A stretch of DNA of 64,000 bases, from NCBI GenBank assembly GCA_964016885.1, contig OZ024743.1, positions 238,080,001-238,144,000 of the forward strand, in the 5' to 3' direction. Shown one piece after another: positions 4,496 to 63,399 of this stretch. The stretch comes from Eledone cirrhosa (lineage: Eukaryota). Each line of letters begins with the position of its first letter. The first letter of the stretch is position 1. A program made the translations under genes and the position numbers. A model generated the notes under the pieces. It was not told the DNA's origin and ran no database searches. It saw nothing but the letters and a program-made list of their open reading frames with translations.

Positions 4496-4504
4496 ATATT
4501 ACTA

Positions 4505-10224: not shown

Positions 10225-10430
10225 ATAGCAGTAAAGTATCGGACAACATGCTTTTCAGCATAGTCACGACCTTTTACGTTCTGTGTTCAAATCCCGGAAG
10301 GTTAGCTTTGCCTTTCATCCTTACAGGATCGATAAAATAAAGTACCAGTAACTAACTGGGATCGATTTAATCGACTTTCTCCTTCCCAAAACATTGTTGG
10401 CCTTGTGCCTAAATTAGAAACCAATAATTA
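10225..10430 (+). mobile_element. tRNA-derived SINE (older variant)
   Basis: GTTCAAATCC, CTTTGCCTTTCATCCTTACAGGATCGATAAAATAAAGTACCAG and GGCCTTGTGCCTAAATTAGAAACCAATAATTA. Confidence 0.8.
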
Positions 10431-24570: not shown

Positions 24571-25744
<1,174 letters not shown>

Positions 25745-26080
25745 CTGAAAGTGACTGGATGGGAGAAGTGATAGAAATGGATGTGATAGGAAACTGAGGA
25801 AGGGGAAGACCAGGAAAGATATGGCTGAAGACAATAGAGGAGGAAAAGAAGACCAGGGGATTAGTGAGAGGGAGTGCAGTCAATAAGGAAAAAATGGAGA
25901 AGCTTGTCATGGGGCCTGCAAGGCTAACCCCTACTTTAGCAGAAAAAATGACCTTAACCCATTAGCAATTCTCTCACCTCTTTCTGTTCAAACCAACTGT
26001 AACTGGCCGATCATACTGATGTCAAGGTATTGTTCTCAAAATAACTATCAAAATCTCATGGATTCAGTATTATGTGAGAT

Positions 26081-27040
26081 AATAATAATAATAATAATAA
26101 TAATGAATTTATTGTGTAAAGTGCTCAGGTGCACTACAACTCGTCAAAGGTGCATGTATAGTACATAGAATAATACACAAATGTCAGGGAAGTGAATAGT
26201 GTATGAGTCATGATATACATGTGTGTATGTGTATGGAGGGGGAAGATTAGGTGTAGTGTTGGCGAATCTCAGGAAGCATGGAGGTTTTAAAGGATGCGGT
26301 GTCTCAGGAGCTAACAACTGATGCAGGTAGTTTGTTCCATGCTTCAGCAACTCTGAGCGTGAAATATGTTTCCGAAAGTCATGGGAACTGTGCTGTTTTC
26401 TTTCGGCATTTTTCTTTGGACTTTGTGGGCATGCCCACGTGTGTTAGACACATGGAAATCAAAAAGGTACTCAGGGTTGTTATTGGCAAGATGGTTAATA
26501 ATCTTGTGGGTGTTTACCAAGTCAGCTGCCAGGCGTCGGAGCTTCAATGTATCCATGCCCAGGGAAGCAAGGCGTTCAGAGTATGGTAGATGCCTAATGG
26601 AGGGTATTCGTTTGGTTGCACGTCTCTGAACAGTTTCCAGGTGGTCAATGTTCTGAGCAAGATAGGGGTTCCAGACTGGTGATGTAAATTCTAAGTGTGG
26701 CCGCACCATAGCCATGTACAGCCTTAAATAGATATCTGGAGAGCGGCTGACAAAGGTCTTGCTGAGTGATGCTAAGATACCCTCGGCCCTCTTGACAATT
26801 TTAGAGACGTGCTTCGTCCAACGCAAATCGCTGCTGACCGTAATGCCCAGGTCACGTTCACAAGAAGACTTCTTGATATTAGTGTTGTGGAGAGAGTATG
26901 TGGACGCTGGGTTTTTACTCCCAAAATGCATGGTGGTGCACTTGTTCACAACTAGCTTGAGTTGCCAGTCTGAGATCCATTGTTGCATTGTGTCCAGGTC
27001 AGACTGCAAGCAAGATCTATAGTGTTCAGGATCTGTCCTT
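26081..27040 (-). mobile_element. CR1-clade LINE, 5'-truncated, inserted in a piggyBac-like MITE
   Basis: ORF 26344-27009: QSDLDTMQQW..WQL, ERDLGI, VRPHLEF..PVWNP, LETVQRRATK; AATAAA plus (ATT)n tail; near-TSD TTATGTGAG(A/G)TAA on both sides. Confidence 0.88.
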
Positions 27041-31472: not shown

Positions 31473-31597
31473 TAGTTCAAATCCCGCCGAGGTTAACTTT
31501 GCCTTTCATCCTTACGGGGGTCGATAAAATAAAGTACCAGTAATGTAATGGGTAATTGATGGCCTTGTGCCAAAAGTAGAAACAATTATTATTATTT
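31473..31597 (+). mobile_element. tRNA-derived SINE, 5'-truncated
   Basis: Starts at the B-box; core and GTAGAAACAATTATTATT tail. Confidence 0.88.
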
Positions 31598-31617: not shown

Positions 31618-31811
31618 ATGGATTGGCAGTATCGGTAGAGGTTTGGGCGCCATGCTTTGCAGCATAGAGTTACGCCACTTTATGATCTGAGTTAACCCCC
31701 CCCCCCCCGGTTAACTTTGCCTTTCATCCTTACGGGGTCGATAAAATTAAGTACCAGTAATGCACTGAGATAAATTGCTGGCCTTGTGCCAAAAGTAGAA
31801 ACAATTATTAT
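31618..31811 (+). mobile_element. tRNA-derived SINE
   Basis: A-box, core and AATTATTAT tail abutting the Tx1-like array. Confidence 0.88.
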
Positions 31812-34800
31812 GAGACGGCTGTAACTAAGGCGGAGTAAGTTAGTTAAATTTTTATGAGTTATCGAAAGTTCTATATACTATTTTTTACAACGGTGTGTAG
31901 TTAAAGAACCCCTCATTCAAAGGAGGTGGTTTGTTAACTGTATCTCGCGCCCTTGAGGGCTAAATTTGCATTTATTTACAATCATACCCCCTAAATTTTG
32001 TTTTTAAAAAAAAATCGCGGACAAAAAATGTGTCCACAGGGAGGAACAGCGGGTTGTTCGGATGGTGGAACAGCCGATTCCATCCAATCACAAGGCAAAG
32101 TAAAAAAAGAGGAAAAACAGCAGCAGCAGCGACAGTGGTGGTGACAACAGCAGCAGCAACCACTGGAACAGTAGCAGCAGTAATGGAAATTACAGCGAAA
32201 ACTTCCCTGCGTTAGAAAAATCAAACACCCCCACCACCCCAATAACAACAGCAACAGCCATAATGAACCGAAGCAGCAACAACTATAAAAGCAGCAACAC
32301 AGAGAAAAAAAAAACACTTACGACGGTAACAAAGACAAAACTAGCGATGGGTCAACACAAATCAAAACAAACACATCTTTCGCTAAAGCGACAAACTATT
32401 TTGAACAAGTACACACCACCAATGAAGAGATAAAACAAGCAAAGGTCTTGGTTAAAAAGACCGGACACAGGGTAAGTTTCACCCGCCCAGCTGAGATAAT
32501 AAGAAACAAGCGTTTGTGTTCGGTCGGTTATCGCACGATCGTATAAAAATCGCGGCGATTCGAACAGGCAACGGAACCACAGGTCCAAAGAGCTATGGGT
32601 TCCGTCTGGGCACAGAAAACATACATAGCTTCGGGATCGAGGTATGGCACTGTGGATGTGCTCTTCGCTACACCAGAAGAAGCCAGAGCACACTCCATTG
32701 CGCCACTCCGCAGTGACGAAATCATAATGATGCCTACAAACTGCGGCCAGAGAGTCGTGAAGGTTCGAGTGGCCCAGGTTCTACCCTCAGGGGAGATGGC
32801 GTGGTTGACAGCGGCCGTCCTCGCTGACGTTGAGGATTCAACAACTATACTCAACGTCAAGCGAATAAGAGAGGAAAATTGGACAGGGTCGGAGATGGAG
32901 CTAATCATCCTAGCAAACCATGAGAACATTGAGGCCATCCCCGATGTAATAGACCTGGACGACGGCAGCCATCTACCCGTGACTATCGAAGGTAGGCGCC
33001 CAAGGTGTCATGGATGCGGTGACAAGACGCACCTTAAGGCATTCTGCCTCAAACTCACCAAAACAGACACGCGCCCACCCCTTCTCCCCACGCCGTGCCC
33101 CGCAACTGAAGCGGACAAACAAAGAAAGACCACAATGGCAGAAGAGAAATCACCATCCCCAACAAAAGCACCATCTCATCCACCACCCACAGAACCAATG
33201 GAAAGCATACCCCTTCCTGATATAGCTAAATCAGACAAGGAGTGCGATGAGGCCGAAGAATGGAGGACTATTCCAACAAAATAAAGGAAGAACTCCCTAC
33301 CCTTTCAGGCTAGTGGCCATCTATGCCCCAACAGGAGAAGGACGGCCTGAATTCTTCCGGTGTCTGGAGAACTTTCTTGGAACGTCCCGCTCTTTAGTGT
33401 TAGTGCGCGACTGGAACGGGATCTTAGATGCACGCTGGGATTGTGTGGGATTAGCAGATAGGGGAGGAGGGTGTAAAAGCCTCACAAACCTGCTCAGGCG
33501 TTTTCAGATGTCGGACAGGTACCAATTGGATTTACCGAATGTGCCAATGTGAACTTGGACAAACCGCATCGGGTCATCCAGATCATATCTAGATAGGGTA
33601 TTTTGTAGGGAAATAAATGGTATAGCATAGGCTGTCCACAATTCAAGATAGTTGGCTACACGGATCACAAATTTGTGATCTGTATGGTTGACTTAGATAG
33701 GCTTCATAGACAGGGACCCGGCTACTGGAAACTAAACGCGTCGTTAACAGCGTGCAAAGGTTACAGAGACCGGATTAGCAAATTGGTTAAGCGGGCATTG
33801 ACATGGGCCATCGTCAACAACAAATGGTGGTTTGCCCTGAAAAGAGCGATTAGAATAGAGTCCATTAGGTTTAGTAAAGCGCTAGTAACAGAGAAAAATA
33901 GAGCTGAAGGAAATCTAGTTAGCAAATTAGACGAGGCGCTTAGTAAAGGCATCGCGACCGACGTGCTTGCGCCGAAATTGGCTCTCGACCCATTTTTCAA
34001 CGCTAAGGACGAAGGATACGTTGCCAGAGCTAGAGTGCGTGCTCTCAGACACGAGCGGACGAAAGCCGTTCAATGGGCCCGGGTGGCGAAGGGCGTCGTG
34101 GCAACAAAGCCACGATCCGGTCTTTGGCGAACAACGACGGGCGCATGATACTCGATCCCGGCAGATGTGTGCGGCTTTTCAGCAGCACTTTGCTCAGGTG
34201 TTCGGGGGCAATGGCGGGCCGCATCGCGGAATGGACTTCAGTGCCTACCTCCACGGACTGCCGAGGTTCTCGGTCACTGAGGCGGAGTGACATCTGCTCT
34301 GTGGTGAGAGTGAACGGTCACCTTTCGGAACCGTTCAACATCATGCACTCGATCCACCAAGGATGTCCTCTCTCGTCCTTGTACGTATTAACTCTCGAGC
34401 CATTACTGCACAAACTGAAGACGCTGAGCGGTGATACCGCTTGAACCAGGATGCGGAAGAACAGTGTCAGCTTATGCAGGCAACATCACCGTAGTGGTGT
34501 CGAACGCCAAACACATCGAGGAAATCGACACCACACTAAGAGACTACGAGGTAGTGACAGGAGCAATGATCAACCAGGAAAAATCAGTAGGCTTGCAACT
34601 CGGCACCTGGGGAGGCAGGTGCAAGCCGTCCAACAGCGTTGCCCGTCACTGGACGGATGGACCGGTTAAATTGTTAGGGGTCCGGACCTAAATACGGACA
34701 AAAACTGAGAGGAGGTCACGAATAAGGTGATTTCTCTCACCCAGAAATGGGCCGAGGGGAAGCTATCTCTGAAAGGTCGAGCGGAGGTGGCGAATGCATA

Positions 34801-36044
34801 CATCGCGTCTGTCATCTACTACCGCCTGACCGTCGTGCCTTGTCCTAAGCCTAGCCTAACTGCACTGGAGAGTTTGCTCTTTCGCTTTTTGTGGAAAGGA
34901 CGCGCTCCGATTGTCAGGCGTTCCATCTGCTGTCAACACCCGCTACGCAGAGGGCTGGGCATGCTGCGGCTGTGGATGCGCAGACATGCGCTCAGGCTAC
35001 GACATCTCCACCTCTTCCTCGGCGGTGATCAGGTGTGGTCGCCCTTTGCTAGACACATGTTTCCCCAGCTTGTCTCCTTGGCGGAGCTGCAATCCTGGGT
35101 CAAGCAAAAACCGAGAGGCAGCGCTTGGAAACTGGAATGTCTTCAGGCGCTTACAGCCATGACCAGTGGAGCAATACAATCGATGGAAACTCCACCTTGG
35201 CGTTCTATAGAGGATTAGTGGAGGGAAAATGGCAACGACGTCCTTGGGGAGACTCTAGGCGTCGATGAAAACCAACTAGCCAATCTCTTTGGGAGAACAT
35301 TTGGGCCGGGGCCCATGGACAACTTCCAGAAATCCCTGGCCTGGCAATGCTACTGAGGAGCCTTGCCAGTTTGGGATAAACTCTACAGGCATGGAAGTGC
35401 CGTCAGCCGGGTTGTCTGAGATGAAACCCTCCCGCACGCACTCGTCCAGTGTCCGAGCATTGCTGACTTGTGGGTTTATGCCGAACACCTGCTGTCAGAT
35501 GTAGAACGGATCCGGCTATCACCTGAGTTCATCGTGAAAATTGCCCCGCCGTCTTTCTTTAGCCGAGAAGGGCAGGCAGTTTTTATTTGCCTGGTGGACA
35601 CCTCTGAAAGGGTTGAAGACGGGTACTTTCCTCTTCGGTGACGCCCTCATTAACTTTTTAAAGTTTCACCTGAAGAGTAAAATCAGGGTGGATAGGGAAG
35701 TGCTGACTTCCAGCCAGTTTGTTGAAAGGTGGGTGAGAGAGGCAAGAATGGCCTGTGTGAATAGGTCTACCCTGAGCGTGTGCCTGTAGCATTGTAGGAG
35801 GAAAACTGGAAGAGGGCATTTGCCCTAGCGGTCAGGGTAACCGTGGCTTTTTTTGTGGGCTTTCTCCACGAGCAACCCTCGGAGGTGTCCCCCCTATTGG
35901 GAATTTTTCATTGTTTCCTTTTGTCACACTCTGTTTTTGTTTTTTATTACATGCAGAAATGCCTATTTGTATTGTCCTGTGTTGTCCTTAATGTTATACT
36001 TTGTGTCAACCCTTGTGGTTAATAAAGAAAGCATTATTATTATT
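31812..36044 (+). mobile_element. Tx1-like non-LTR retrotransposon, copy 1 (two internal deletions)
   Basis: ORF1 32595-33284 with zinc knuckle CHGCGDKTHLKAFC; partial APE (YAPTG, DWNGILD, GYWKLN); partial RT (QGCPLS, YAGN); ends CCCTTGTGGTTAATAAAGAAAGC(ATT)n. Confidence 0.9.
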
Positions 36045-39000
36045 GGTCTGTTTGGAGGTCTTTTTTTCTCGCTCCCAGTAAGTCGTTTTATTTACCTGTT
36101 ATATTATTTGTTGTTAAATTGTTCTTGTTGTGTAGGGAAATAAGCCCTTGGACTTTACCCTGTGAAGGGGAAAGTATGATATTTGGGCCTTTTGGCCCAA
36201 ATATTTTAACAATATTTGAACATTTTACTTTTGAAAATAAAAAAAAATGAAAACATGGCTGAGCCATGCCCCCCCCCCCCCCCCCCCCCAGCAATATCTC
36301 TGCTGTCGTGTGACAACGGCGTAAAAGTTGAGAGGAGGGTTAGTGAAATTCATACAACAAACACCACAAACAACGTGAACAAAGACAACAACACTGAGAA
36401 CACTAAATTAAAAAAAATTACCACACTAACTACAACAATAACAGCGTTAACAATAATACAGACAACAGAAAAAAATGACAACAAATGCAACAACGATATT
36501 AACACCACTAACAAGAAAATAAACAACAACACCAACAACAACAATACAAATTGCACCGAAAACAACAACAATGGTGGCACCAAAAACACAACCAACTACA
36601 ACAGTGATAACAGCAACAACACCAACAACACCGTTTGTAGCAACAGCAACAGCACCAACAACAAGACCAGTAGCAGCAGTAGCGGCAGCAATAATGTTGC
36701 CGCTGAAAAAGGGGTCACTTCTTTCGCAGGTGTGGCCCGAAATATAGAGACAGTGCTAGACACGGAGGAGGAGATGGCAGTCACAAGAGCCATGGTGACA
36801 AGGAATGAATATAGAGTTTCCCTGAAACCTCCACCCGATTTCTTCAAAGACGAGCAGAGCAGCTGAGCACACTGACTTACTGCACCGTAAGCAAGATGTC
36901 ACATCAGGTGGAGAGAGCCATGGAGGCTCAAATCCAAAAGGCTTGGGGTATGTCTGGGCGCCAAAAACCCACATCACCCGAGGCAAAAAATACGCCACAG
37001 TAGACGTACATTTCGCCACCCGCCAAGAGGCGAAGTCTCACTCTTTGGAAACTCTAAAGAGTGAGGAGATGCTAATACAGACTGACCAGGAGTACACCGA
37101 GGCCATCCCAGATATCATAGACTTCGAAGAAGGACTCCAGCTCCCTATAAGCGTGGAGGGAAGGCGCCCAAAGTGCTTTCTCTGTGGGCAGAAGGGTCAC
37201 CTCAGGGCCTTCTGCCCGCAGAAGACAGCCAAGAAGAGGGCCCCTCCTTCCGACGCCGGATCCGCTGCTACCAAGAGCAGGGCAGGCAACAGAGGCAGAA
37301 GACCCTTCCATGGTAAATAGGAGGCCAACGCTCGTGGCCCCATACCAAGGCCACGGACAACTAAAGCAGCGGCAGCTGGCGGCAACACCAACAGTAGCAG
37401 TAGCCACACCGGCAGCGAAATCGCCGGAGCGGGCTCCACTACCACCACCAACAGCAGTGGAGCTCATACCCCTCCCAGACCCACGGAATCCGATATGGAG
37501 TATGAGGCAGGAGGGAAGTAGCAAATGGTGTGCCACAAAAAAAAAAAAATCCCTTAGCTTCACCCTCCAAAAGCGAAGGCAAACGAAGAGGGGTAAAAGC
37601 TGCAAGGAGACTTGCAGCAACACCACTACCATCACCATCACCATCACCACCACAAGCATCACCACCAACAACAACCACGCCACCACCAGCATCACCAAAA
37701 ACACCAACATCGCAAACACAACAAAACACACACACCCAACAGCAACAAGAAAACAGTAACAAAATCACCCCTTCCCTCAAAAAAGTACACAGCCATAAAC
37801 ATGGCAAATAAAGAACTCTTACAACATATAAAGCAGCACACAGACATCACAGAAAAAAACTACTACAGCCCATCAACACCAAGAACTCTCCCGACAAACA
37901 TAAACATCATTGAAATCAAAATAGAACATTACAAACTTTTAAAACAAAAATTCCCCAAATCAGTTGGAGACTCCAGAGGGTCGGTTACCAAGACGATATA
38001 CACCGACATCCTCTTGGAAACACCCATGACCAGCCAAAGGGATGGTTCTACTGTCCCTTCGCCACAAGATCAAGGTAAGTGATCCTTTCTCACTTAGCCT
38101 GTTTCTCATCCAACATGGCCGTACTTAGAATAGGCAGTATAAAAGTACGTGGCCTGGGGTAATCTTGGAAGCAGGGTGACCTGCTCAACGACCTCAGGTC
38201 ACTAAACATAGATCTGGTGGCCATCAGTGAGACCAGAATCTCCGAAGCACGAGCCTTCGCACCGATCTTCGGCGGCTACGATGTATACGCATCTCCCAGC
38301 CGTCCAGGATCGGGGGGAGGGCTTGCCGTGCTTTTTCGGAGAGGCTTGGATCTTCCTGGACTCAGAAGGTAATTCGGTGGTGCTGGACGTGACCGGCAGC
38401 GAAGGCAATGCTTTCAGGTTAGTAGCCGTCTACGCCCCCATAGGGGCAGGACGGACAGATTTCTTCAGACGTCTAGAGACCTTTCTTGGAAGGTCCCGCT
38501 CTTTAGAGTTAGTGGGCGACTGGAACGGTATCTTAGATGCACGCTGGGATTATGTGGGGCTAGTAGACAGGGCAGGAGGGTGTAAAAGCCTCAACAACCT
38601 GCTCAGACGTTTCGAACTGTCTGACAGGTATAGGCTGGATTATCTGAATGTGCTAATGTGGACATGGGCAAAACAGATCGGGTCATCCAGATCGTATTTA
38701 GATAGGGTATTCTGTAGGGAAACAGATAAGACTAGTGTAGGTTGTCCACAATTTAAAGTAGTCGACTACACGGACCACAAATTTGTGATCTGTGAAGTTG
38801 ACTTAGATAGACTCCATAGGCAATGGCCCAGCTGCTGGAAGCTGAACGCGCCGTTCCCGGCGCGCAAAGCTTACAGAGACCGGATTAGCGAATTAGTTAA
38901 GCGTGCGTTGACGGGTGCGATCGTCAACAACAGGTGGTGGTTTACCCTGAAAAGGGCTATTAGACTAGAATCGATAAGGTTTAGCAAAGGAGTAGTGATA

Positions 39001-41765
39001 AAGGTAAATAGAGTAGAGAGAGAGTTAGTTAGAAAGCTAGAAGAGGCGTTTGGGACAGGCATCGCAACCGACGTGCTTGCGGCGAGATTGGAACTCGACC
39101 AATTCTTCAACGCAAAGCATGAAGGCTGCGTTGTCAGAGCTAGAGCGCGTGCTCTAAGACACGAGGGGATGAAAGCCGTTCAATGGGCCCGGGTGGTCGA
39201 GGCGCGACGTGGCAACAAGTCCACGATTTCGTCTTTACCTGATCAAAACGGGAGCATGTTGCTCGAACCCGAGCAGATGTGTGCGGCTTTTCAACATCAC
39301 TTTGCTCAATTGTTCGGGAACGGCGGCGAGTCGGATCGGAGTATCAACTTGGGTGCATAACTCGACGGACTGCCGCGGCTCTTGACGACCGTAGCGCAGT
39401 GCTGCGAAAAGCCGATAACAGCAAGTGAAATACGGGAAGCGATGTCTGACTACACGAGGGGTAAATCGCCAGGTTTGGATGGTCTGCCCTACGAGCTTTA
39501 TGCGTACATGCCAGACTTGTTCGGCGACCTCATGGCAGATGTGTACTGCAACTGGCAGCAGAACGGGGGCATTCCCAGTTTTGTGAGCCGGGGAGCGGTG
39601 GCGCTGCTGAGAAAAGACCCGAACAAGGGGGACGTTGTAGACAACTTCAGACCCATAACTCTGCTAAACGCAGAGTTTAAGATATTGGCCAAGGTGTTAG
39701 CAAAGAGATTGGCGCTTGTCGTCGGTGATCTGGTGGGAGAGGCGCAGACATACACCATTCCGGACAGATTCATCCATGACAACCTCCATCTCATGCGATA
39801 CATCATAGAGAGGTTGGTTAAGGAACCTGGCATGGGTGGGGCCCTGATCAATTTGGATCAATCTAAAGCATTTGATAGGGTTGACCATCGGTACCTGGCT
39901 GCGGTCCGCGGCGCGGCCAGCTTCGGGCTCGTTTTTAGGAGCTGGATCGCTGCGATGCACAGCGACATCTGCTCGATTGTGAGGGTGAATGGTCACCTGT
40001 CGCAGCCTTTCAGCATCATGCGCTTGGTCCACCAGGGTTTCCCCCTCTCGTCCCTCTTGTACGTACTGGCCCTAGAGCCGTTCTTGCACAAGAGACGATG
40101 AGGGGTGTCCCACGCGCACTGGGATAAGAGACAACAAAGTTTTAGCCGACGACGTCACCGTGGTGGTGTCGAGCACGAAACACGTCCAGATGCTCGGCAC
40201 CGCTCTCAAGGAATACGAAGCGGTGACAGGAGCAAAGATAAACTAGGAAAAGTCCGTCGTCTTGCATCTCGGCACCTGAAGAGGCAAGTCCATGCCGTCC
40301 GACAGCGTCGTGGGGCTCTGGACGGAAAGCCGGTTAAATTGCTCAGGGTCTGGTTCGGCTCGGACCTCCAGATGGACAAAAAAAAGGAGCGAGGTGACGA
40401 GCAGGGTGGCCTCTCTCACCCAGAAATCGGCCGAGAGGAGGCTGTCTCTGAAAGGCCGGGCAGAGGTGGCGAATACGTACATCGCGTCCATCATCCGCTA
40501 CCAACTGACTTGTACCTTGTCCCCGCCCAACTCTGACCAAAATTGAGCGCCTTCTCTTCCGCTTTTTGTGGAAGGGACGTGCTCCCATGGGCAGACGATC
40601 CATTTGCTGTTAACACCTGTTGCGTGGAGGACTAGGCATGCCATGGCTGATGATGCGCAAACATGCGCTGAGGCTGCGACATCTCTGGTGTTTCCTTGAC
40701 GGGGAACAGGTGTGGTCACCGTTCGCCAGACACGCTTTTCCGCAGCTCATCTCCTTGACGGAGCTGCAGTCCTGGATCAGGAAAACACCGAGGGATAGCG
40801 CTTGGAAGATGGAATGTATCCAGGCGCTCAACGCCCCCTACCAGCTGGGCACTGATATCGGTGGAACATCGACCTTGGTGTTCTATAGAGGGCTAGTGGA
40901 GGGAAAGAGCGACGACTTTCTCGGGGAGACCCTAGGCGTCGAAGACGATCATCTGTTCGCTCTCTTCTAGAGAACTTTCAGACCGGGGCCTATGGACAAC
41001 TTCCAGAAATCCCTGGCCTGGCAGTGTTACCGGGGAGCGTTGCCGGTTCGGGATAAGCTCTACTGGCACGGAGGTGTTGTCAGCCGAGCCTGTCCAAGAT
41101 GCGCCCAGGGCGACGAAACCGTCCTGAACGCACTTGTTCAGTGCCCGAGGATTGCTGACTTGTGGAGCTATGTCGAAAAGCTGCTGTCGCGTGTAGGACG
41201 GATCCGGTTATCGATTGAGTCCATTGTGCAGATAGTCCCGCCGTCCTCCTTTAAGGAGGAGGAAGGACAGGCAGTTTTCATCTGCCTGGTGGCCATGGCG
41301 AAAGAGATTGTGTGGTGGACAAGGTTGAAAGGGTTGAAGATGTACACTTTCTTCTTCGGCCAATTCCTGATTAACTTTTTCAAGTTTCACTTGAAGAGGA
41401 AAATCAGGGTGGAGAGACAAGTGCTGTCTTTTAGTAAGTTTGTTGAAAGGTGGGTGAAAGTGGTGAGCCTGGTCCGAATGAACGGGCCCGCTCTGAGTAT
41501 GCGCCTGTAGACTGAGGAGTGGGAAAATTGATAGAGGGCGCTTGCCCTGGTAGTCAGGATGGCCGTGGTCTTTTTGTGTGACTCTCGGAGGTTTCCCCCT
41601 TTTTGAGGAATTTTTGTTGTTTGAATTTTTTTGATTTCTAGCCCGATTGTGTTATAACCTGTTTACATGACAAAAACACACTTTGTATCGTCCTGTACTG
41701 TTCTGTGTCGTCTCTAATGTTTTTCTTCGTGTTAGCCCTTGTGGCCAATAATGAAACCATTATTA
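36045..41765 (+). mobile_element. Tx1-like retrotransposon, copy 2 (near full length, frameshifted)
   Basis: ORF1 pieces 36216-38082 (N/T-rich, CFLCGQKGHLRAFC); ORF2 from ATG 38115 with APE, RT (GKSPGLDG, FRPITLLN, DQSKAFD) and C-terminal CPRC..ETV..ALVQCP; (ATT) tail. Confidence 0.92.
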
Positions 41766-44700
41766 CAACAATAAGAGCATCAGAAACACCACATTTGCTG
41801 CAGCAGCAGCAAAAACAAAGCGCTTATTGAATATTGATATTGATATTAGCGATAAAGACGAACAGTTGGCCAAAGCGTGGAGGCTAATTAAACGGGAGAA
41901 GTCCTGGGCAAACCTGACCATCCCGGACGAGGCAATAGCGGTCATGCAAAGGAGGACGGTGCTCTTTCGATGTATTTCGGTGCAGACACGAAAAGTGGAA
42001 CTTGCGAGCCAAGCAGAGGTAGAGGCTGCTTTGGAGTTCACCGGAAGTAACATAGAGTACAAAGCAAGAGGCAAACAGTTCGGTACCATCTCGGTACTGT
42101 TCAAAACCGAGGCCCTCGCTATTAAGCACTCGGTGACCCCCTGCAGAACGGAACGCATTATCATGCATCCGTCCTATATGGGTAAAAGGACAGTGAAGGT
42201 ACGCATTCCCAACATCCCACCAGGAATGAACATATGGTGGCTACTGGGATGCGTAATCGAGGAGGGGACAGACACTGCCCTCCTAGACATCAAAAGGACA
42301 GAGAGAGAGGACTGGTCCGGAATGGATTTGGAGATTCTTCTCCAAATGAAACCGGAAGATATGAATAACATCCCGGATTTTGCCCGCCTGCAGGATGGGA
42401 CAACAATCCAACTAATGATTGACGGAAGAAGGCCACGCTGCTTCGTCTGCGGGGAAGCAACGCATCTTCAAGCCTTCTGCCCTCAGCGCAAAAATGCAGG
42501 GGGTCGCAAACCTCCTTTGTTGCCAACGCCAGTGTCATCACGGAAAGCTGCACCACCACTACCACCAACATCAACATCAACAAAAACACGGACACCAACA
42601 TCAAAAGCAGCCGGATCACCACCAACACCAAAACCAATCCAAGGAGAAAACGAGGAAAGCTCTCCCACTCCCCCTACCCCCCAATTATACACATAGACAA
42701 AACAATAAACGCACACACAAACACAGAGACACTCACAGACACAGACCCGTTGTCTTCCAGCAGCGAAGATGAAGGAAAACCCAAAAGTGCAAAAAAACAG
42801 AGAAAACAGACAAAAACAAAAGGCCCAACAAAATACAAAAACACACACAACAAAAAATACAGACACCACTAACGCAAACACTTCCCCAATAACATCATCA
42901 CCAACAGCAACATCGACACCGCCTCCACAATCCCCGAAACGCAAACAACCTAAACAAACACAAGTACAAATAAACACACAAATACCTGAAATTGCAGACA
43001 CCACACCTACAACAAACATAGACATACCCGAAACAACACCACCAAAACCATCGCCACCACCTTCACCAAAACGAAAACAAATAAAACCACACCAACAAAA
43101 TGTTAAAAACTACGTGCTTGTCAGAAGGGCCAACGATAAACTGATGGCCCTCTTAGCGCGAAGCGAGGACATTCAAACAGAGGGGGAGATTTTTGAAATG
43201 AGCACATTTTGCGTGCCAGAAGATTTGCTTCTGGTCCGAATGTCACTCAATTCCTTCAAAGAAATTCGAGAGAGCTTTCCTCAAGACGTGGGAACTCCGA
43301 ATGTGAAACCCACATCAAGACTTTTAAAGGGGTTCCCAAAAGAAACCCCACCAACCATGGAGGTCGAACCACCCGACCTTCACAAGACCCGGGAGGTAAG
43401 TAAACCTTCCCTCTCTCTCTCTCTTAGCTTACCAATATGGCCATATTAAGAGTAGGCAGTTTAAATGTTCGCGGCCTGGGGTCACCCTGGAAGCAGGGTC
43501 GCTTGCTCAACGACCTCCGGTCGCTAGAAATGGATGTGATTGCCGTAAGCGAGACCAGAATTTCCGACACGCGCGCACTAGCCCCCATTTTCGACGACTA
43601 TCAGACCTTCGCATCTGTTAGCAGGCCGGGAATGGGGGGTGGGGTGGCAGTGCTGTTTAGGAAAGGACTGGATCTCGAGGTAAGGTCGATCTTCCGGGAC
43701 CCGGACGGTAAGTTGGTGGTCTTGGATGTGAGCAGTAGCGAAGGTGGTGCCTTTAGACTGCTGGCCGTCTACGCCCCTACAGGGGCCGGACGACCTGACT
43801 TCTTTAGGCGCCTGGAGACCTTTCTGGGTACGTCTCGCCCTTTACTGTTAGCGGGGGACTGGAATGGCAGGGATTGTGTGGGAGTAGCCGATAGGAGCGG
43901 GGGGTGCAAAAGCCTCAAGCACCTACTCAGCCAGTTCCAACTGTCTGACAGGTATCGACTAGATTTCGCCAATGTGCCAGTATGGACATGGACCAACCGA
44001 ATGGGGTCATCTAGATCGTATATAGACAGGATCTTCATTAGAAAAATAGATAGAAATAGTGTGGGCTGTCCACTTTTTAAAACGGTCGCCTATTCAGACC
44101 ACAAATTTGTGATCTGTACGGTCGACCTAAATAAAACGCGTAGGTTAGGACCGGGTTACTGGAAGCTGAACAGGTCAATTCCGGCACGTAAGGCTTACAG
44201 GGACCGAGTCAACAAGTTAGTTAAGCAAAAGTTGACAGGGGTAATCATCAACAACAGATGGTAGGGGGCTCTCAAAAGAGAGATTAGAGTAACTTCGATA
44301 GAGTTCAGCAAAGAACTAGCGTTAGAGAAAAATAGAAAGCAGGGGGAGTTGGTAGATAAGTTAGACGAGGCTATTTGTAGTGGCATCGCAACTGACGTGC
44401 TAGCGGCGAGAATGGCATTAGACCATTTTTTCAATGCCAAACATGAAGGTTGCATTGTCAGAGCTAAGGCGCGTGCGCTGAGAAACGAGGGAACTAAAGC
44501 TGTTCGATGGGCCCGCGTGGCGGAGGCGCAGCGTGGTAATAAAACCACAATTCGGTCTTTGGCGGACCGAAACGGACACGAGATAAGCGATTCCAAGCGG
44601 ATGTGTGAGGCCTTTCGCCAACACTTTGCTCGGTTGTTCAGGGAGAGTGGCGAGTCAGAGAGAGTAGCGGATTTCAGTCCCTACCTTGACAGCTTGCCGC

Positions 44701-47114
44701 GCATCTCGACGGTCGACGCTGAGCGCTGCGAAAGGCCGATTACTTCAGCCGAAATTCAGGACGCCCTTGTCGGCTGCATGAGGCGCAAGTCACCCGGTTT
44801 GGATGGCCTGCCCTACGAGCTTTACGTAAATATGCCAGACTTGTTCTCCGAACTCCTCGAAGCACTCTACTGCAACTGGCAGCAGAATGGGAGTATTCCC
44901 AGTTCTGTGAGCAGGTGAGTGGTGACGCTGATAAGGAAAGACGAGAACAAGAGGGATACATTAGACAACTTCAGGCCCATAACTCTGCTCAACACAGAGT
45001 TTAAGATTTTGGCCAAGGTGTTAGCAAAGAGATAGGCGCTTGTCGTCGAGGATTTGGTTGGGGAGGCGCAAACTTGCGCAATCCCAGCCAGGTCCATACA
45101 CAACAATCTCCACCTCATGCGATACATCATAGAGAGAGTAGGGTGTAAACCTGGCTTCGGTGGGGCACTGATCAATTTAGATCAATCGAAAGCATTCGAT
45201 AGGGTCGATCATCGGTACCTGGAGTTTGTCCTCAAAGCAGCTGGCTTCGGCCCTGTCTTTAGAAGCTGGATCGTTGCAATGCACAGCGGCACACGCTCGC
45301 TGGTCAAGGTTAATGGCCACCTCTCGGAACCATTTCGGCTCTCCCGATCGGTCCGTCAAGGGTTCCCTCTCTCTTCCCTTCTGTACGTATTGACTCTCGA
45401 GCCTTTACTGCGGAAGCTGGAGCTGTTGCAGGGCATCCCGCTCGAACCGGGACGTGGAAAGGCGGTGTCGGCTTATGCGGCCGACATCACCGTGATGGTG
45501 TCGAACACCTCAGAAATCGAGGTGGTCGGCACCTTATTGAAGGAATATGAAAGGTTGACAGGAGCCAAACTTAACCCGGAAAAGTCGGTGGGCTTGCAGC
45601 TCGGAACCTGGAGAGGCAAGCCCATGCCGTCCAACAGCGTCGTGGGGCGCTGGACGGACGGACCGGTAAAGTTGCTCGGAGTTTGGTTCGGACCTGACCT
45701 CCAGGTGAAAAAGAATTGGGACGAGGTAACGAGCAGAGTAGCCAGTCTCACCCAAAAATGGGCTGGGAGGAAGCTATCACTGAAAGGTCGCGCGGAGGTG
45801 GCGAATGCGTACATCGCGTCCGTCATCTACTACCGCCTAACCGTCGTGCCTTGCCCCCGTCCGCGCCTCGTCAAGTTGGAACGGCTCCTCTTCAAATTCT
45901 TGTGGAGGGGACAAGTTCCGTTGGTGAGGCGGTCCATCTGCTGCCAGCACCCTCTACGCGGAGGGCTGGGCATGCCGTGGCTAATGATGCGCAGACATGC
46001 GTTGAGGCTGCGACATCTCCAGATATTCTGCCTCAATGGTGAACAGGTGTGGTCGCCGTTTATCAGACGGGCCTTTCCGCAGCTCATTTCTTTGACTGAG
46101 CTGCAGTCCTGGGTCAAGAAGAGACCGAGACTGGGTGACTGGCACCTGGAATGTTGCCAGGCTCTCACTGCCCTCTACCAAGCTGGCAATGCAATCAGTG
46201 GAACTTCCACTCTCGAGTTCTATAGAGGATTCGTGGTGGGCAAGTGCGATGACGCACTCGGAGAAGCTTTGGGCCTCGACGAAGTCGAACTGACCAGTCT
46301 GTACCGGAGGACTTTTGAGCCGGGGACGATGGACAATTTCCAGAAATCCCTCGCTTGGCAGTGCTACCGGGAGGCACTGCCGGTTCGGGATAAACTCTAC
46401 AGGCACGGAAGTGCTGTCAGACGGACCTGCCCAAGATGCGCACAGAACGACGAAACCGTTCTGCACGCACTTGTCCAATGTCCGTGCATTACTGACTTGT
46501 GGAGTTATGACGAACAGCTACTGTCGCGTGTGGAACGAATCCGGCTATCGAGCCGCCACCTTCCTTAGGTCAGGAAGAGCAGGAAATTTTCCTCTGTCTG
46601 GTGGCAGTTGCGAAAGAGATTATATGGTGGACCAGGTTGAAAGGACTAAAGACAGACACTTTTCTCTTCGGCCAATCCCTCTTCAACTTCTTCAAGTTTC
46701 ACCTGGAAAGGAGGGTGAGGGTGGAGAGAGAAGTGCTTCCCCCCAATACATTTGCTAAAAGGTGGGTGAATGTGGCGAGAATGGTTCGTGTGAATGGGCC
46801 TGCTCTGACCATGCGCCTATAGGCTGGCTAACTTGAGGAGAGGGGTGCTCTCCTGGGTGCCCTAGAAGCGCAGGGTGGTTCAGGATTGGTGGGGTACCCG
46901 AATCACCCCAGGGTCGTCCACCCCTATCGGGGAATTTATTTTGTTGTATTTATGCATAGTTTATTTTATATTTTTATATTTTCATTGTTAAATTAATCTT
47001 GCCATTGTGCACTTTTACTCGACCTTATTGTAAACCCCCACTATCCCTGTCTTTGTATTGTCCCCTACATGTCGGCCCTTGTGGCTAATAAATGAAATCA
47101 TTATTATTATTATT
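41766..47114 (+). mobile_element. Tx1-like retrotransposon, copy 3 (most divergent, 5'-truncated)
   Basis: ORF1 41827-43449 (CFVCGEATHLQAFC); ORF2 43437-46822 (SLNVRGL, SETR, GDWN, SDH; QGFPLS, YAAD; CCHC finger) with stops; (ATT)n tail. Confidence 0.92.
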
Positions 47115-50100
47115 GAATGCTATGGTTGACGGAGGCTCGGCTCTGTAAATTTTGACCGCTATAACAATTGTAAATTGTTTAAAACTTTAACCAACTTGTA
47201 GACAAAAACACCCTCCTCCTTGTGAGAGGGGTCTTTCTGCCCGTTATTTGGCCCTTCGGGGTTATATAACCGCCTATTGGGGTTTTGTGCCCAATATTTA
47301 TTTTAAACAAAAAAACAACATGGCTACGAAAAAGAATTTTCATAGGTCACTCCCACTCATTCCGTCTTCTTCTTCCTCAATCGTCACTACAGCAGAGAGA
47401 AGATTGTCTCTCTCCCTCCCCTCTCTAAATGTGTCTCTCTCCCTCCCTTCTCTTTCGCAAGCGACGCCAGAAAAGAAAAATCACGTGCAAAGCGAGCAAG
47501 ATTTCTCCACGACGACGACGACAACGACGAAACAGGTGTGCGGGAAATACGAAAACCCATTTCATTCGTCTGACGTCAGGAATAATAGCAGTAGCAGCCG
47601 TAATAACAGCAGCAACAGTGACAAGGAAAACAACAGTAGCAGCCGCAACAGCATCAGCAGCAGCATAAACAACAACAGCATTAGCAGCAACAACAACAGC
47701 AGCAGCAGCAACAACAACAACAACCACAGCAACAGCGGCGGGGGCAGTAGTCGTAGTACCTGCAGCAACAACAAAAGTAACAGCAGCTCTGACGACAACA
47801 ACAACAACAACAGCAGCAAAGAAAAACCAATCTCGTTTGCAGGTATCGCAAAGAACCTGGAAACCATCCTCATAACAAATGAGGAATTAGAGGAAGCGAA
47901 GAAGATGGTGACAAAAACTGGACACCGAGCAATCTGCAAGGCAGCGGAAAATTTTTTCGAAACCCAACAGCACTGTACGGTCACGTACCGTACAGTAAGT
48001 ACAAAATCCCGTAGGGTTGAAAGAGCCACAGAAGCTCAAATACAAAAAGCCTGGGGGTCTGTGTGGCAGCGGAAAACGCACATCACCCGAGGCAAGAAAT
48101 ATGCCACAGTAGACGTACTTTTTGCCACACCCCAGGAGGCAAAGGCTCAATCCTTAGTGACCCTAAGGAGCGAGGAAATAGTGTTGGTGCCCTCCTACTG
48201 GGGGCAAAAAATTGTGATGGTCAAACTGACCCCCCCCCCCCCCCCGATGGGCCATTCTTGGCTGGCCGCGTCTGTCCTCGTCGGAATCGAGGACAAAACA
48301 ACTGTACTGCAAGTACAGAAAAAAGTAAGAGAAGTTTGGGTCGGCACCTCCATTGAGATGTTAATCCAAACCAACCAGGAGTGCATCGAAGCTATCCCGG
48401 ATGTGATAGACTTCGATAACGGCACTCAACTGCCCATAAGTGTTGAGGGCAAACGCCCGAAATGCTTTCGCTGTGGATCGAAGACTCACCTCAGGGCCTT
48501 CTGCAACGAGAAGACCCTGAGAAAGGAGAAAACCCCCCTCCTTCCGAAACCGGCTCCACGGCTCCAGCAACAGGACAAGCGGCAACCAGGAACGATAGGT
48601 CCGTGGCACCCATACCCACGCCACGGAAATCAAAAACAGCAGCAGCAGTGGAAGGATTAACAACAACAACAACAGCAATACCAAATGCAGCTGCAACAGA
48701 GACTCCAGGGCAAACATCACCAACAACAACAAGTGAAAGTGTGGAGCTGGTACCCCTCCCCGACCTCACAGAATCAGACATGGAGTGTGAGGTGGGAGAG
48801 GGATGGCAAAAGGTCGTAAGAAGGCACAAACGCAGAAGCAGCGCATCGTCGCCTTCGAAAAGGGAGGAAAGAAATGAAAAAAGGGTAAAGGCTACTGCAA
48901 AGAGACTCACAGCAGCAACACCACCAACACCATCACCACCCACACTAGCACCACCATCACCACCGGCGACAACCCTACCGCCAACAACACCTTCAACACC
49001 ACCACCACAAGCACCAACATCGCAAACACAACAACAAAACACACACACCCAGCAACAACGACAAGAAAATAGCAGAACCACACCCCTCCCCCAGAAAAAC
49101 AATGCACGGCAATAAATACACACAACAAGAAACTAGTGACTTACATAATTGAACACACAGACATTTCACAACACGACTACATAATACCAGCACCAATCAA
49201 AACGCCAACTAACATAAGACTGCTAAAAATAGCACAGAAACAATACACAAACATTAAAACGAAATTCCCCAACGCAGTTGGTGATTTCAGAGACCTAGGA
49301 GGGACCCTCAACCGAAGAGTATATTGGGACATACTCATAGAAGAGCCGACGGCCAGCCGAAGGGACGATTCAACGGTCCCTTCACCAGACGATCAAGTGA
49401 AAAGGGATGGAAAAACCATCCCTCCTCTACGAAAAGTACGGTAAGTGGTCTTTCCCATCTTTTCCACTCTATTTTAAACATGACCTCACTCAGAATAGGC
49501 AGCATAAATGCGCGTGGCTTGGGGTCGTCATGGAAGCAGGGTCACCTGCTCAACGACCTCAGGTCACTAAACATAGATGTAGTGGCCATCAGCGAGACCA
49601 GAATCTCCGAAGCACGGGCCTTCGCACCGATCTTCGGCGGCTACGAAGTGTACGCATCTCCCAGCCGTCCTGGATCAGGGGAGGAGTTGCTGTGCTTTTT
49701 CAGAGAAGTTTGGATCTCGCCATACCGGCCATCTTCCTGGACCCAGAGGGTAAGTTGGTGGTGCTGGACGTGACCAGCGGAGACGTGCAAGCTTTCAGGC
49801 TAGTGGCCGTCTATGCCCGACAGGAGCAGGACGGCCTGATTTCTTCCGGCGTCTGGAGACCTTTCTTGGAACGTCCCGCTCTTTAGTGTTAGTGGGCGAC
49901 TGGAACGAGATCTTAGATGCACGCTGGGACTGTGTGGGATTAGCAGATAGGGGTGGAGGGTGCAAGAGCTTCACCAACCTGCTCAGGCGTTTTGAACTGT
50001 CTGACAGGCACCGATTGGATTTCCCGAATGTGCCAATGTGGACTTGGACAAATCGCATAGGGTCATCCAGATAATATCTAGATAGAGTATTTTGTAGGGA

Positions 50101-53100
50101 AATAGATAGGTCTAGCATAGGCTGTCCACAATTCAAGATAGTCAGCTACAGGGACCACAAATTCGTGATCTGTGTGCTTGACTTAGATAGGCTTCATAGA
50201 CGATACCCGGCTACTGGAAGCTAAACGCGTCCTTACCAGCGCGCAAGGCCTACAGAGACCGGATTAGCGAACTAGTTAAGCGGGCGTTGACGGGGGACAT
50301 CGTCAACAACAAGTGGTGGTTTGCTCTGAAAAGAGCAATTAGAATAGAATCGATTAGGTTCAGTAAGGCTTTAGCAATAGAGAAAAATAGAGCAGAGGGA
50401 GAACTAGTTAGAAAATTAAAACGAGGCGCTTAGCAAAGGCATTGCGACCGACGTGCTTGCGGCGAAATTGGCCCTTGACCAATTCTTCAATGCAAAGCAC
50501 GAAGGCTGCGTTGTCAGAGCTAGGGTGCGTGCTCTCAGACACGAGGGGACGAAAGCCGTTCAATGGGTCCGAGTGGCGGAGGAGCGTCGTGGCAACAAAG
50601 CCACGATCCGGTCTTTGGTGGACCACGACGGGCGCATGCTACTCGATCCCGGGCAAATGTGTGAAGCTTTTCAGCGATACTTCGCTCAGCTGTTCGGGGG
50701 CAGTGGTGGACAGGGTCGAGGGATGGACTTTAGTGTCTACTTCGACGGACTGCCACGGCTCTCGGCCACTGAGGCGGAGTGTTGCGAAAAGCCGATAACA
50801 GCCGCTGAAGTAAGGGAGGCAATGACTGGCTGCACAAGGGGTAAATCGCCTGGTTTGGATGGTCTGCCATATGAACTTTACGTACAGATGCCAGACTTGT
50901 TCGGAGGCCTCTTGGCGGACGTCTACTGCAACTGGCAACAGAACGGGAGTATTCCCAGTTCTGTGAGCCGAGGAGCGGTGGCACTGCTGAGAAAGGATCC
51001 GAACAAGGGGGATAACATAGATAATTTCCGGCCCATAACTCTGCTAAACACAGAGTTCAAGATTTTGGCCAAGGTGCTAGCAAAGAGGTTGGCGCTTGTC
51101 GTTGGTGGTCTGGTGAGAGAGGCGCAGACATGCGCCATTCCCGACAGATCCATCCACGACAACCTCCACCTCATGCGATACATCGTAGAGAGGGTAGCTA
51201 GGGAACATGGCACGGGTGGGTCCTTGATCAATTTAGATCAGTCGAAAGCTTTCGATAGGGTAGACCATCGTTACCTAGCGGCAGGCCTGAGGGCGGCTGG
51301 ATTTGGGCCCGTCTTCAGAGGTTGGATCGCTGCCATGCACAGCGACATTTGCTCTGTGGTGAGAGTGAACGGTCACCTTTCGGAAGCGTTCAAGATCATG
51401 CGCTCGGTCCGCCAAGGATGTCCTCTCTCGTCCCTCTTGTACGTATTGACTCTCGAGCCATTACTGCACAAACTAGAGACGTTGAGGGGCGTCCCGCGCG
51501 AACTAGGATGCGGAAGATCCGTGTCAGCATATGCGGACGATGTCACCGTAGTGGTGTCGAACGCCAAACACATCGAGGCGATCGGCACTACACTAAGAGA
51601 ATACGAAGCGGTGACAGGAGCAATGATCAACCAGGAAAAGTCAGTGGGCCTGCAGCTCGGCACCTGGAGAGGCAGGTCCATGCCGTCCAACAGCGTCGTT
51701 GGACGCTGGACGGACGGACCGGTTAAATTGCTAGGGGTCTGGTTCGGTCCGGACCTCCAGACGGACAAAAACTGGGACGAGGTGACGAGCAGGGTGGCTT
51801 CTCTCACCCAGAAATGGGCGGAGAGGAAGCTATCCCTGAAAGATCGAGCGGAGGTGGCTAACACGTACATCGCGTCTGTCATCTGTTACCGCCTGACCGT
51901 CGTACCTTGTCCTAAGCCCCGCCTGACTGCGCTGGAGCGTTTGCTCTTTCGCTTTTTGTGGAAGGGACGCGCTCCGATGGTCAGGCGGTCCATCTGCTGT
52001 CAACACCCGCTACGTGGAGGGCTGGGAATGCCGTGGCTGATGATGCGCAGACACGCGCTCAGGCTACGACATCTCCACCTCTTCCTCGACGGTGATCAGG
52101 TGTGGTCGCCGTTTGCTAGACACGTATTTCCCCAGCTCGTTTCCTTGACGGAGTTGCAGTCCTGGGTCAAGCGAAGACCGAGAGGGAGCGCCTGGAGACT
52201 GGAATGTCTTCAGGCGCTCACAGCCCTCGACCAATCGGGAAATGTGATCGGTGGAAACTCCACCTCGGCGTTCTATAGAGGATTAGTGGAGGGGAAGAGC
52301 GACGACGTACTTGGGGAAACTCTAGGCGTCGACGAAAATCAACTAGCCAATCTCTTCGGAAGAACTTTCGGGCCAGGGCCTATGGACAACTTCCAGAAAT
52401 CTCTGGCCTGGCAGTGCTACCGAGGAGCCTTGCCAGTTCGGGATAAACTCTACAGGCATGGAGGTGCCGTCAGCCGGGCATGTCCGAGATGCGCGCAGGG
52501 CGACGAAACCGTCCTGCACGCACTCGTCCAGTGTCCGAAAATTGCTGACTTTGGGTTTATATCGAACACCTGCTGTCGCGTGTAGGACGGATCCGGCTAT
52601 CATCTGAGTCCATCGTGAGGATTACTCCGCCCTCCTCCTTTAGCCGGGAAGGGCAGGCAGTTTTTATCTGTCTGGTGGCCATGGCGAAAGAGATAGTATG
52701 GTGGACACGTTTGAAAGGGCTGAAGACGAGCACTTACCTCTTCGGTGATGCCCTGATTGCCTTTTTCAAATTTCATTTGAAAAGGAAAATCAGAGTAGAG
52801 AGGGAAGTGCTCTCTTCCCAGCATTTTGTTGAAAGATGGGTGAGAGAAGCAAGAATGGCCCGAGTGAATGGGCCTACTCTGAGTATATATCTGTAAATTA
52901 AAGGTGGAAAACTGGGAGAGGGCACTTGCCTTGGTGGTCAGGGTCACTGTGGCCTTTTACTGGGCTTTCTCCACAAATGTCCCTCCGAAGTCTCCCCTCT
53001 ATTGGGGAATTTTTCATTGTTATTTTTTGTTACATCCTCTGTTTTTGTTTTTTACACGCCCATTTGTACCGTATTGTATTGTCCTGCACTGTCCTTAATG

Positions 53101-53136
53101 TCTACTTTATGTAAACCCTTGTGGTTAAAAAAGAAA

Positions 53137-53170
<34 letters not shown>
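47115..53170 (+). mobile_element. Tx1-like retrotransposon, copy 4 (best preserved)
   Basis: ORF1 ~47320-49444 (S/N-rich, CFRCGSKTHLRAFC); ORF2 49480-52896 with a 710-aa open stretch (QGCPLS, YADD, CPRCAQGDETVLHALVQCP); frameshifts in APE; longest (ATT)n tail. Confidence 0.93.
50453..52585 (+). CDS. Reverse transcriptase + zinc-finger portion of Tx1-like ORF2
   Basis: Open 710-aa frame with non-LTR RT motifs including SAYADDV; part of a frameshifted ORF2. Confidence 0.85.
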   Translation: MLAAKLALDQFFNAKHEGCVVRARVRALRHEGTKAVQWVRVAEERRGNKATIRSLVDHDGRMLLDPGQMCEAFQRYFAQLFGGSGGQGRGMDFSVYFDGLPRLSATEAECCEKPITAAEVREAMTGCTRGKSPGLDGLPYELYVQMPDLFGGLLADVYCNWQQNGSIPSSVSRGAVALLRKDPNKGDNIDNFRPITLLNTEFKILAKVLAKRLALVVGGLVREAQTCAIPDRSIHDNLHLMRYIVERVAREHGTGGSLINLDQSKAFDRVDHRYLAAGLRAAGFGPVFRGWIAAMHSDICSVVRVNGHLSEAFKIMRSVRQGCPLSSLLYVLTLEPLLHKLETLRGVPRELGCGRSVSAYADDVTVVVSNAKHIEAIGTTLREYEAVTGAMINQEKSVGLQLGTWRGRSMPSNSVVGRWTDGPVKLLGVWFGPDLQTDKNWDEVTSRVASLTQKWAERKLSLKDRAEVANTYIASVICYRLTVVPCPKPRLTALERLLFRFLWKGRAPMVRRSICCQHPLRGGLGMPWLMMRRHALRLRHLHLFLDGDQVWSPFARHVFPQLVSLTELQSWVKRRPRGSAWRLECLQALTALDQSGNVIGGNSTSAFYRGLVEGKSDDVLGETLGVDENQLANLFGRTFGPGPMDNFQKSLAWQCYRGALPVRDKLYRHGGAVSRACPRCAQGDETVLHALVQCPKIADFGFISNTCCRV

Positions 53171-62780: not shown

Positions 62781-62974
62781 TAGGCAGTGGATTGGCAGTA
62801 TCGGTAGAGGGCGGACGTCATGCTTTGACGCATAGAGTTACGGCCCTTTCCCTTCTGAGTTCAAATCCCGCCGAGGTCAACTTTGCCTTTCATCCTTACG
62901 GGGTCGATAAAATAAAGTACCAGTAATGTACTGGGTAATTGCTGGCCTTGTGCCAAGTGTAGAAACAATTATTA
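62781..62974 (+). mobile_element. tRNA-derived SINE
   Basis: Full A box, B box, core and tail; directly follows an (ATT)n tract. Confidence 0.9.
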
Positions 62975-63190
62975 TGTTTTTTTCGTGCAATGGCCATACT
63001 CGATAACGAGGGGGCTGCCATCATGTATGTACTTTAAAAACCTTCAAAGCACAGGCATTGCTTGTTCTAGATTTGTTACAGGTTCGTGTTGCTGGCTGTG
63101 CCCCATTTTCTGCAATCTGACAAGAGATTGCAATACTCTTAGCAGAGTTTGCAGTCATTATATATGTATGTATGTATGTATGTGGATACA

Positions 63191-63382
63191 GGGCGGTGGA
63201 TTGGCAGTATCGGTAGAGGGTCGGACGCCATGCTTTGACGCATAGAGTTACGGCCCTTGCCATTCTGAGTTCAAATCCCGCCGAGGTTAACTTTGCCTTT
63301 CATCCTTACGGGGTCGATAAAATAAAGTACCAGTAATGTACTGGGTAATTTCTGGCCTTGTGCCAATAGTAGAAACAATTAT
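63191..63382 (+). mobile_element. tRNA-derived SINE, full length
   Basis: GGGCGGTGGATTGGCAGTATCGG start and GTAGAAACAATTAT end. Confidence 0.9.
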
Positions 63383-63399
63383 GTATGTATGTATGTATG

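Follow-up and report, generated by a model that had tools for sequence, protein, structure and literature searches.

A candidate partnership between an abundant SINE and an (ATT)n-targeting Tx1-like LINE lineage in the cephalopod Eledone cirrhosa

Introduction

The sharing of tails between short interspersed elements (SINEs) and long interspersed elements (LINEs), the targeting of microsatellites by Tx1 elements and the driving of SINEs by Tx1 are each already known, separately, from the passages cited (PMC4494074; PMC3747384; PMC3472496), and the pair described here, an abundant SINE and a lineage of Tx1-like LINEs that meet in a window of 64,000 nucleotides of Eledone cirrhosa (positions 238,080,001-238,144,000 of contig OZ024743.1; genome 3.0 Gb), is an instance of this well-known kind of partnership. 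Like the eel UnaSINE/UnaL2 and the zebrafish L2 elements ZfL2-1 and ZfL2-2, it has a short shared 3' stem-loop, here a predicted one, followed by a simple repeat, and in the cited parts of those studies the loop is conserved and the stem exchangeable (PMC1636434; PMC4176376), the ZfL2 stems being swappable and the loop required (PMC4176376, where 'TX1' is the name of a construct and not of the clade). Those pairs, however, belong to the L2 clade and were assayed, whereas ours is L1/Tx1-like, shares about 30 nt and is known from sequence alone. A SINE has also been given a Tx1 partner in crocodilians, where SINEU and Tx1-Mar were joined by common target and age (PMC4494074). As described in the sections cited, SINEU elements have small nuclear RNA heads and a Mariner transposon as target, some of their families show a weaker target preference than others, and the evidence for the pairing consists of shared 5' heads and targets, not of a 3' hairpin (PMC4494074). 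The same sections report microsatellite-inserting LINEs of the Tx1 clade, namely Kibi in (TC)n, Koshi in (TTC)n and crocodilian elements in (TTCC)n/(TTTC)n; ours are like them but target (ATT)n, with a sister group in (ATCT)n, and have a cephalopod host, a comparison made on targets and hosts and not on a tree with named references.

For tail-sharing with a LINE of the L1 clade, the cited part of one survey has plants and an alga only (PMC3472496): the pairs ZmSINE2/3-LINE1-1_ZM of maize and SINEX-3_CR-L1-1_CR of Chlamydomonas have poly(A) ends (PMC3472496; PMC3747384), whereas the present one is animal, ends in (ATT)n and has a specific target. Among octopus repeats, OR1 and OR2 are abundant transfer RNA (tRNA) SINEs of the CORE superfamily, for which the cited passages give no partner LINE (PMC4824008, PMC5804259, PMC4758252), and our family may be OR1/OR2 or a relative. 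In Octopus vulgaris, 11.6% of the genome is SINE sequence, and the portion cited leaves most recently active families unclassified (PMC13282606). In a literature search that covered neither Repbase and SINEBase nor subscription papers, which may hold these families, we found no paper naming this pair, nor any in which an animal Tx1 and a SINE have a 3' hairpin in common. Knowing the partner LINE would identify the enzyme that copies a repeat which occupies about 3% of the genome and inserts into exons. A target-specific Tx1 partner in an animal would also be relevant to the question of whether the relaxed recognition of mammalian L1 is derived.

Results

It is highly probable that an ATT-targeting Tx1-like lineage mobilises the SINE, judging from the shared 3' end, the common targets and the nesting of the two families. 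Both meet in the window, where four diverged Tx1-like LINEs of the L1 clade, 72-88% alike over their aligned parts, lie head-to-tail at 31812-53170. LINE a begins inside the ATT tail of a SINE (31619-31811), and LINEs b, c and d each begin in the ATT tail of the preceding LINE:

31619..31811, +, SINE of the short young subfamily S, with LINE a inserted in its ATT tail
31775..31795, +, predicted terminal hairpin of this SINE, with stem GGC/GCC and loop CTTGT at 31783-31787, then GAAA and ATT
31812..36044, +, Tx1-like LINE a, degraded, with an internal deletion and a 5' boundary drawn from this copy only; CCHC knuckle of open reading frame 1 (ORF1) at 33006, predicted hairpin 36004-36024, ATT tail 36033-36044
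36045..41765, +, Tx1-like LINE b, full length, degraded; knuckle at 37174, predicted hairpin 41730-41750, ATT tail from 41759
41766..47114, +, Tx1-like LINE c, 5'-truncated within ORF1; knuckle at 42439, Exo_endo_phos, RVT_1 and zf-RVT domains, predicted hairpin 47070-47090, ATT tail 47100-47114
47115..53170, +, Tx1-like LINE d, full length, frameshifted; knuckle at 48463, RVT_1 and zf-RVT, predicted hairpin 53110-53130, ATT tail 53139-53170

In the Tx1 clade, a CCHC knuckle in ORF1 takes the place of the domain found in mammalian L1 ORF1. A knuckle of the form CX2CX4HX4C is present in all four window LINEs, and ORF1 gave no Pfam match above the cut-off. The ORF2 pieces in the window encode Exo_endo_phos, RVT_1 and zf-RVT, as does the open frame of 1165 amino acids of one family-d copy, and an open ORF2 of about this length (~1165 amino acids) occurs in 2/20 family-d copies fetched. 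Among solved structures human L1 ORF2 was the nearest (E 1e-47), R2 appeared at E 1e-22 and no other clade appeared, while all 30 of the zf-RVT loci fetched, out of 150 scored, belong to the same Tx1-like radiation. The nearest homologues of the LINE protein with a named organism come from Argonauta hians (70%) and a cuttlefish; none of the homologues gave a clade label, the entries being unnamed or 'hypothetical'. The name Tx1-like thus denotes an L1-clade ORF2, the knuckle and the target preference, and not a position in a tree with named references.

The stretch common to the SINE and Tx1 ends is short, about 30 nt, and comprises a predicted hairpin with a CUUGU loop, GAAA and an ATT repeat. 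When tails are aligned on CTTGT, GAAA and the ATT run stand at equal distances in SINE S, SINE L (the older, long subfamily) and Tx1 a, b and d. The predicted stem is GGC/GCC in the SINE and GCC/GGC or ACC/GGT in the LINEs, the second pair being C-G in 11/11 Tx1 rows and G-C in 7/7 SINE rows. Across 18 tails the named hairpin had 86.5% of its cells paired against 68.6% in shuffles (0/500 as high), and the same register slid along the tails gave 30-58%. In the 17 Tx1 tails alone, covariation was weaker than in the joint set, with nine double changes against 3.5 (1/500). A covariance model trained on these 17 tails with the hairpin returned 67 matches from the 1.0 Mb sample described below at E values up to 10, made up of 16 Tx1 and 24 SINE 3' ends and 27 others; a structure-free model of the same alignment, run under different filters and calibration, recovered two SINE ends among 22 non-Tx1 matches, against 24 in 51 for the hairpin model. 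In pairwise local alignment of the last 45 nt, the score of SINE L with Tx1 c was unmatched by any of 1000 shuffles. Most Tx1 tails also keep AATAAA inside the 3' arm, which the SINE does not have, a difference that would fit transcripts of polymerase II and III, respectively.

The first-pass annotation of this DNA had rested the partnership on the pattern CCTTGTG-N(9-11)-GAAA-N2-ATTATT. Each of the seven SINE and Tx1-like ends that it quoted was located in the sequence, but of its SINE examples the one at 31780 follows the strict pattern, and those at 10399 and 63354 only the loose form CCTTGTG..GAAA. It was also right that the RTE and CR1 tails of the window lack CCTTGTG, but the ATT tail is not specific to Tx1; it cannot by itself single out that group, because the CR1 family of the window ends in (ATT)n too. 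The strict pattern has nine exact matches in the window, at five SINE ends (31563, 31782 and 62946 on the plus strand; 3943 and 1710 on the minus strand) and at the four LINE ends (36011, 41737, 47077 and 53117). For genome-wide frequencies we used two unbiased samples, of 60 evenly spaced 10-kb stretches (600 kb) and of 100 such stretches (1.0 Mb). In the 600 kb the strict motif occurred 39 times against 0 expected and the loose one 60 times against 1.0 expected, the expectation being taken from five block shuffles. The 66 strict matches in the 1.0 Mb comprise 58 SINE ends, seven Tx1-like ends and a single unclassified one that reads as an old SINE, and in that sample the motif is confined to SINE and Tx1-like ends.

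The insertion sites of the two families point the same way. SINE duplications are 8-20 bp long and start at Y|ATTAT. Among 124 copies that have both ends, a test anchored on the SINE tail found duplications of at least 8 bp in 53, the rate for mismatched flanks being 7%; in 47 of the 53 a C or T precedes the duplication, and the median for SINE S is 15 bp. An unanchored test gave non-repetitive duplications of at least 10 bp in 41/124 copies, and 29 of these 41 start with ATTAT exactly at the SINE end. Against a background of 6.9% per 35 nt, ATTAT stands at 32/56 mapped Tx1 5' junctions and at 0/18 of the window-type CR1; (ATT)3 is present at 28/56 of the Tx1 junctions, and many of those without ATTAT are alignment breaks within other Tx1 sequence. 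Among 20 family-d copies, chosen by a query that contained a 3' ATT run, the 16 full-length ones are without exception preceded by an ATT run, as are three related 5' ends of LINE b found elsewhere. In loci partly selected by Tx1 or SINE queries, a SINE directly follows a Tx1 end in 16/85 cases, a Tx1 follows a SINE end in 15/225 and a SINE follows a CR1 end in 0/22. The annotation's report of a SINE that landed at ATTATT with a 19-bp target-site duplication was confirmed in a minus-strand copy (3915-4106) lying in an exon-like open frame.

The SINE itself is short, non-coding and dispersed, with 5'-truncated copies, target duplications and a simple-repeat tail. Its 207 matches cover 3.1% of the 1.0 Mb sample, which would correspond to roughly 600,000 copies in the genome, provided that the sample is typical. 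One head and body is joined to three alternative tails, S (short), L (30 nt longer) and P (unrelated), with median divergences from consensus of 6.6% (n=47), 15.4% (n=22) and 14.4% (n=7), respectively. The copy at 63191 has an A-box-like (63202-63213) and a B-box-like sequence (63269-63277) 55 nt apart, as judged by the consensus, and a copy on another contig is 100% identical to it (63191-63384) across 198 nt. Neither ARAGORN nor Rfam matched the head to a tRNA or to any other RNA. Besides the copy at the start of the LINE array, the window holds the following:

1681..1779, -, SINE S, 5'-truncated
3915..4106, -, SINE S, full length, with the 19-bp duplication from ATTATT, in an exon-like frame of the plus strand
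4315..4497, +, SINE S
10226..10429, +, SINE L, with an end of GAAAYC-ATT type, nearer to the Tx1 end
31474..31591, +, SINE S, 5'-truncated, within an ATT run behind an RTE end, upstream of the LINE array
62783..62976, +, SINE S, full length, preceded by an ATT run
63191..63384, +, SINE S, full length

Subfamily P, seen at L117:3095, L114:1483-5400 (where part of it forms a tandem array) and L081:6037-6400, has a tail of about 150 nt that ends in (ATACC)n-like repeats; because this tail is different, its partner is probably different as well.

Discussion

The proposal with which we began, that the Tx1-like lineage drives the abundant SINE, is supported by the tail, by Y|ATTAT and by the nesting; the tail match is a short hairpin and not a long identity, and from these three together we infer mobilisation. 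Because the two have the same predicted 3' hairpin, ATT repeat and ATTAT sites, the SINE is likely to use the Tx1-like copying enzyme. When tail, hairpin register and insertion signature are taken together, no LINE family in the sample is a better match for the SINE end, so that the refuting condition set by the first-pass annotation, a better-matching LINE, did not arise there.

Several observations nevertheless weigh against this assignment. The covariation amounts to few independent changes, because the alignment rows are related, and the structure was drawn after both families had been inspected. Single-strand folding found 7/7 tails no stabler than their shuffles (z -1.2 to +1.1). Each SINE match of the hairpin model is insignificant singly (E 0.16-9.6), and the model recovered only 24 of 152 SINE ends, copies that are not independent. 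Pairwise scores of SINE S with Tx1 a-d over the last 45 nt are weak (p 0.003-0.20), a second CR1 family scores like Tx1 against SINE S (p 0.004-0.03), and the top pairwise scorer against SINE S is the ATCT-tailed sister Tx1. Likewise, the top 100 of a sequence profile of the Tx1 end holds seven SINE ends and five of the second CR1 family; for subfamily S, pairwise and profile scores alone do not separate Tx1 from that family. In the sample, moreover, the 3' ends of a few LINE families are not visible. Concerning targets, both families insert at Y|ATTAT and their duplication lengths agree, but the SINE is looser, with (ATT)3 on the 5' side in 13/90 S copies against 28/56 for Tx1. Concerning ages, the mutual nesting of SINE and Tx1 points to overlapping activity, but the SINE medians (S 6.6%, L ~15%) are older than the sampled Tx1 families, which date to 2.7-5.6% per copy in a sample that leans young, having been selected by intact domain; the ranges touch. 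The comparison of targets and of ages that the annotation called for, as run on the sample, did not refute the pairing.

If the Tx1-like lineage is the partner, its way of working can be sketched by analogy. The SINE RNA would likely be copied in trans by the ORF2 protein of the (ATT)n-targeting lineage. On the model of target-primed reverse transcription by L1, a first nick, made by the endonuclease in the bottom strand at ATAAT/R, would free a DNA end to anneal to the RNA's AUU repeat; a second nick 8-20 bp along may then yield the duplication. If ORF2 works as in ZfL2-1 and ZfL2-2, it would recognise the CUUGU loop and need the stem only to be paired. Since each insertion creates new ATT, copies would stack, which explains the array of four LINEs. 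Tx1 ends 5'-truncated to 48-132 nt occur and are a plausible source for tail capture, and the SINE probably acquired its tail from such a short end.

Put in its fullest form, this would make the lineage an animal branch of the L1/Tx1 clade with stringent, loop-specific recognition of CUUGU and AUU priming, driving a SINE of ~600,000 copies and split into ATT and ATCT branches in which loop, tail and target change together. We advance that fuller picture tentatively, as one whose chance of being right falls a little short of even. If true, such a stringent Tx1 system would be a natural test of the co-evolution of RNA recognition and target choice, and of a stringent ancestry of the relaxed mammalian L1. 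Rather unlikely, though it would keep the same partner as the best explanation and differ in mechanism, is relaxed mobilisation, in which Tx1 needs only the pairing of the AUU repeat with the primer and the hairpin is left over from tail capture. The hairpins are no stabler than shuffles, the sister families with ATCT tails have a variable loop, and L1-clade elements are mostly relaxed according to the part of the survey cited (PMC3472496), all of which relaxed recognition would accommodate. It sits less easily with the persistence of hairpin and GAAA through a deletion of 30 nt between subfamilies L and S, with pairing kept through a double change and with the retention of the hairpin in Tx1 families 72-88% alike.

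An unsampled LINE, whether from another clade or from a Tx1 branch that is rare or extinct and has the SINE-type stem, is an improbable partner, the present Tx1 elements being in that case relatives or co-targeters. The unbiased sample is of just 1.0 Mb, some families have no visible 3' end, and subfamily L is older than the dated Tx1 families. But the 30 zf-RVT loci fetched all fall in one Tx1 radiation, and Dong/R4 and RTE end in (TAA)n and (TGA)n, respectively. A LINE carrying the SINE-type stem was sought genome-wide by a pattern that joined this stem to the upstream word of Tx1 type, and was rejected as a candidate: of 194 matches, the 30 fetched were SINE variants, the SINE body being present in 26 and its 3' part only being matched in four.

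The main rival among the families of the window is the CR1-type LINE, of which a fragment lies as follows:

26050..27040, -, CR1-type LINE fragment with an (ATT)n end, without a CUUGU hairpin and without ATTAT at its 5' junction

This family has a tail identical to that of the SINE in unit and polarity, and with copies up to 98% alike it has been recently active. Its tail similarity to the SINE, however, is at p 0.25-0.93, the top 100 of its profile holds no SINE end, and 0/18 junctions (some 4 of the 18 being alignment limits and not true ends) have ATTAT or a duplication of at least 8 bp. The insertion signature largely refutes a CR1 partnership, and we regard it as very improbable. That the likeness arose by chance, or by convergence of ATT-rich ends, as the ~30 nt shared and the weak pairwise scores of subfamily S would allow, is scarcely credible given the same loop and spacing at a position named beforehand, the swapped stem pair and the matching insertion signature.

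Three further families were set aside as partners. Dong/R4, a candidate on account of the microsatellite that it shares, was rejected for its (TAA)n sense tail, opposite orientation and absence of tail similarity; RTE was rejected on its (TGA)n end; and a family with a fixed ATTATTATTAC ahead of (TA)n has no hairpin and inserts in TA runs.

Other features of the window and genome

Sister Tx1-like families have (ATCT)n tails and targets, with the same AATAAA-GAAA end and a variable loop. Such ends were seen at L111 (8272-8808, minus), L106:7888, L065:2384, L054:264, L291:635 and L267:3085; at L111 three of them are stacked.

Two Dong/R4 families with (TAA)n tails often lie tail-to-tail with Tx1 or the SINE in one microsatellite (L177, L183, L282 and the 3' flanks of L042, L047, L050, L056 and L059), and one of them is 98-99% alike across its best 40 copies. 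The ATTATTATTAC-(TA)n repeat occupies 61200-61700 (+) of the window and 14 other places in the fetched loci, and in the window it adjoins GIY-YIG frames of Penelope-like type. Penelope-like elements, with a reverse transcriptase-like frame and a weak GIY-YIG match, lie at 11847-13380, 57596-58890 and 59953-60621.

The frame interrupted by the young SINE (3790-4270, +) is exon-like, is bounded by AG and GT and reads open if the SINE is removed; it contains the motif IPESPRWL, which we take to be typical of MFS/SLC22 transporters. An inverted duplication of about 2.7 kb, 92-99% alike, joins 7296-10054 and 22702-25744. Elsewhere, at G000:C1:143.3-143.8 Mb (L161, L164-L168, L171), a segment is repeated at a spacing of about 50-60 kb, with two CR1 ends joined tail-to-tail.

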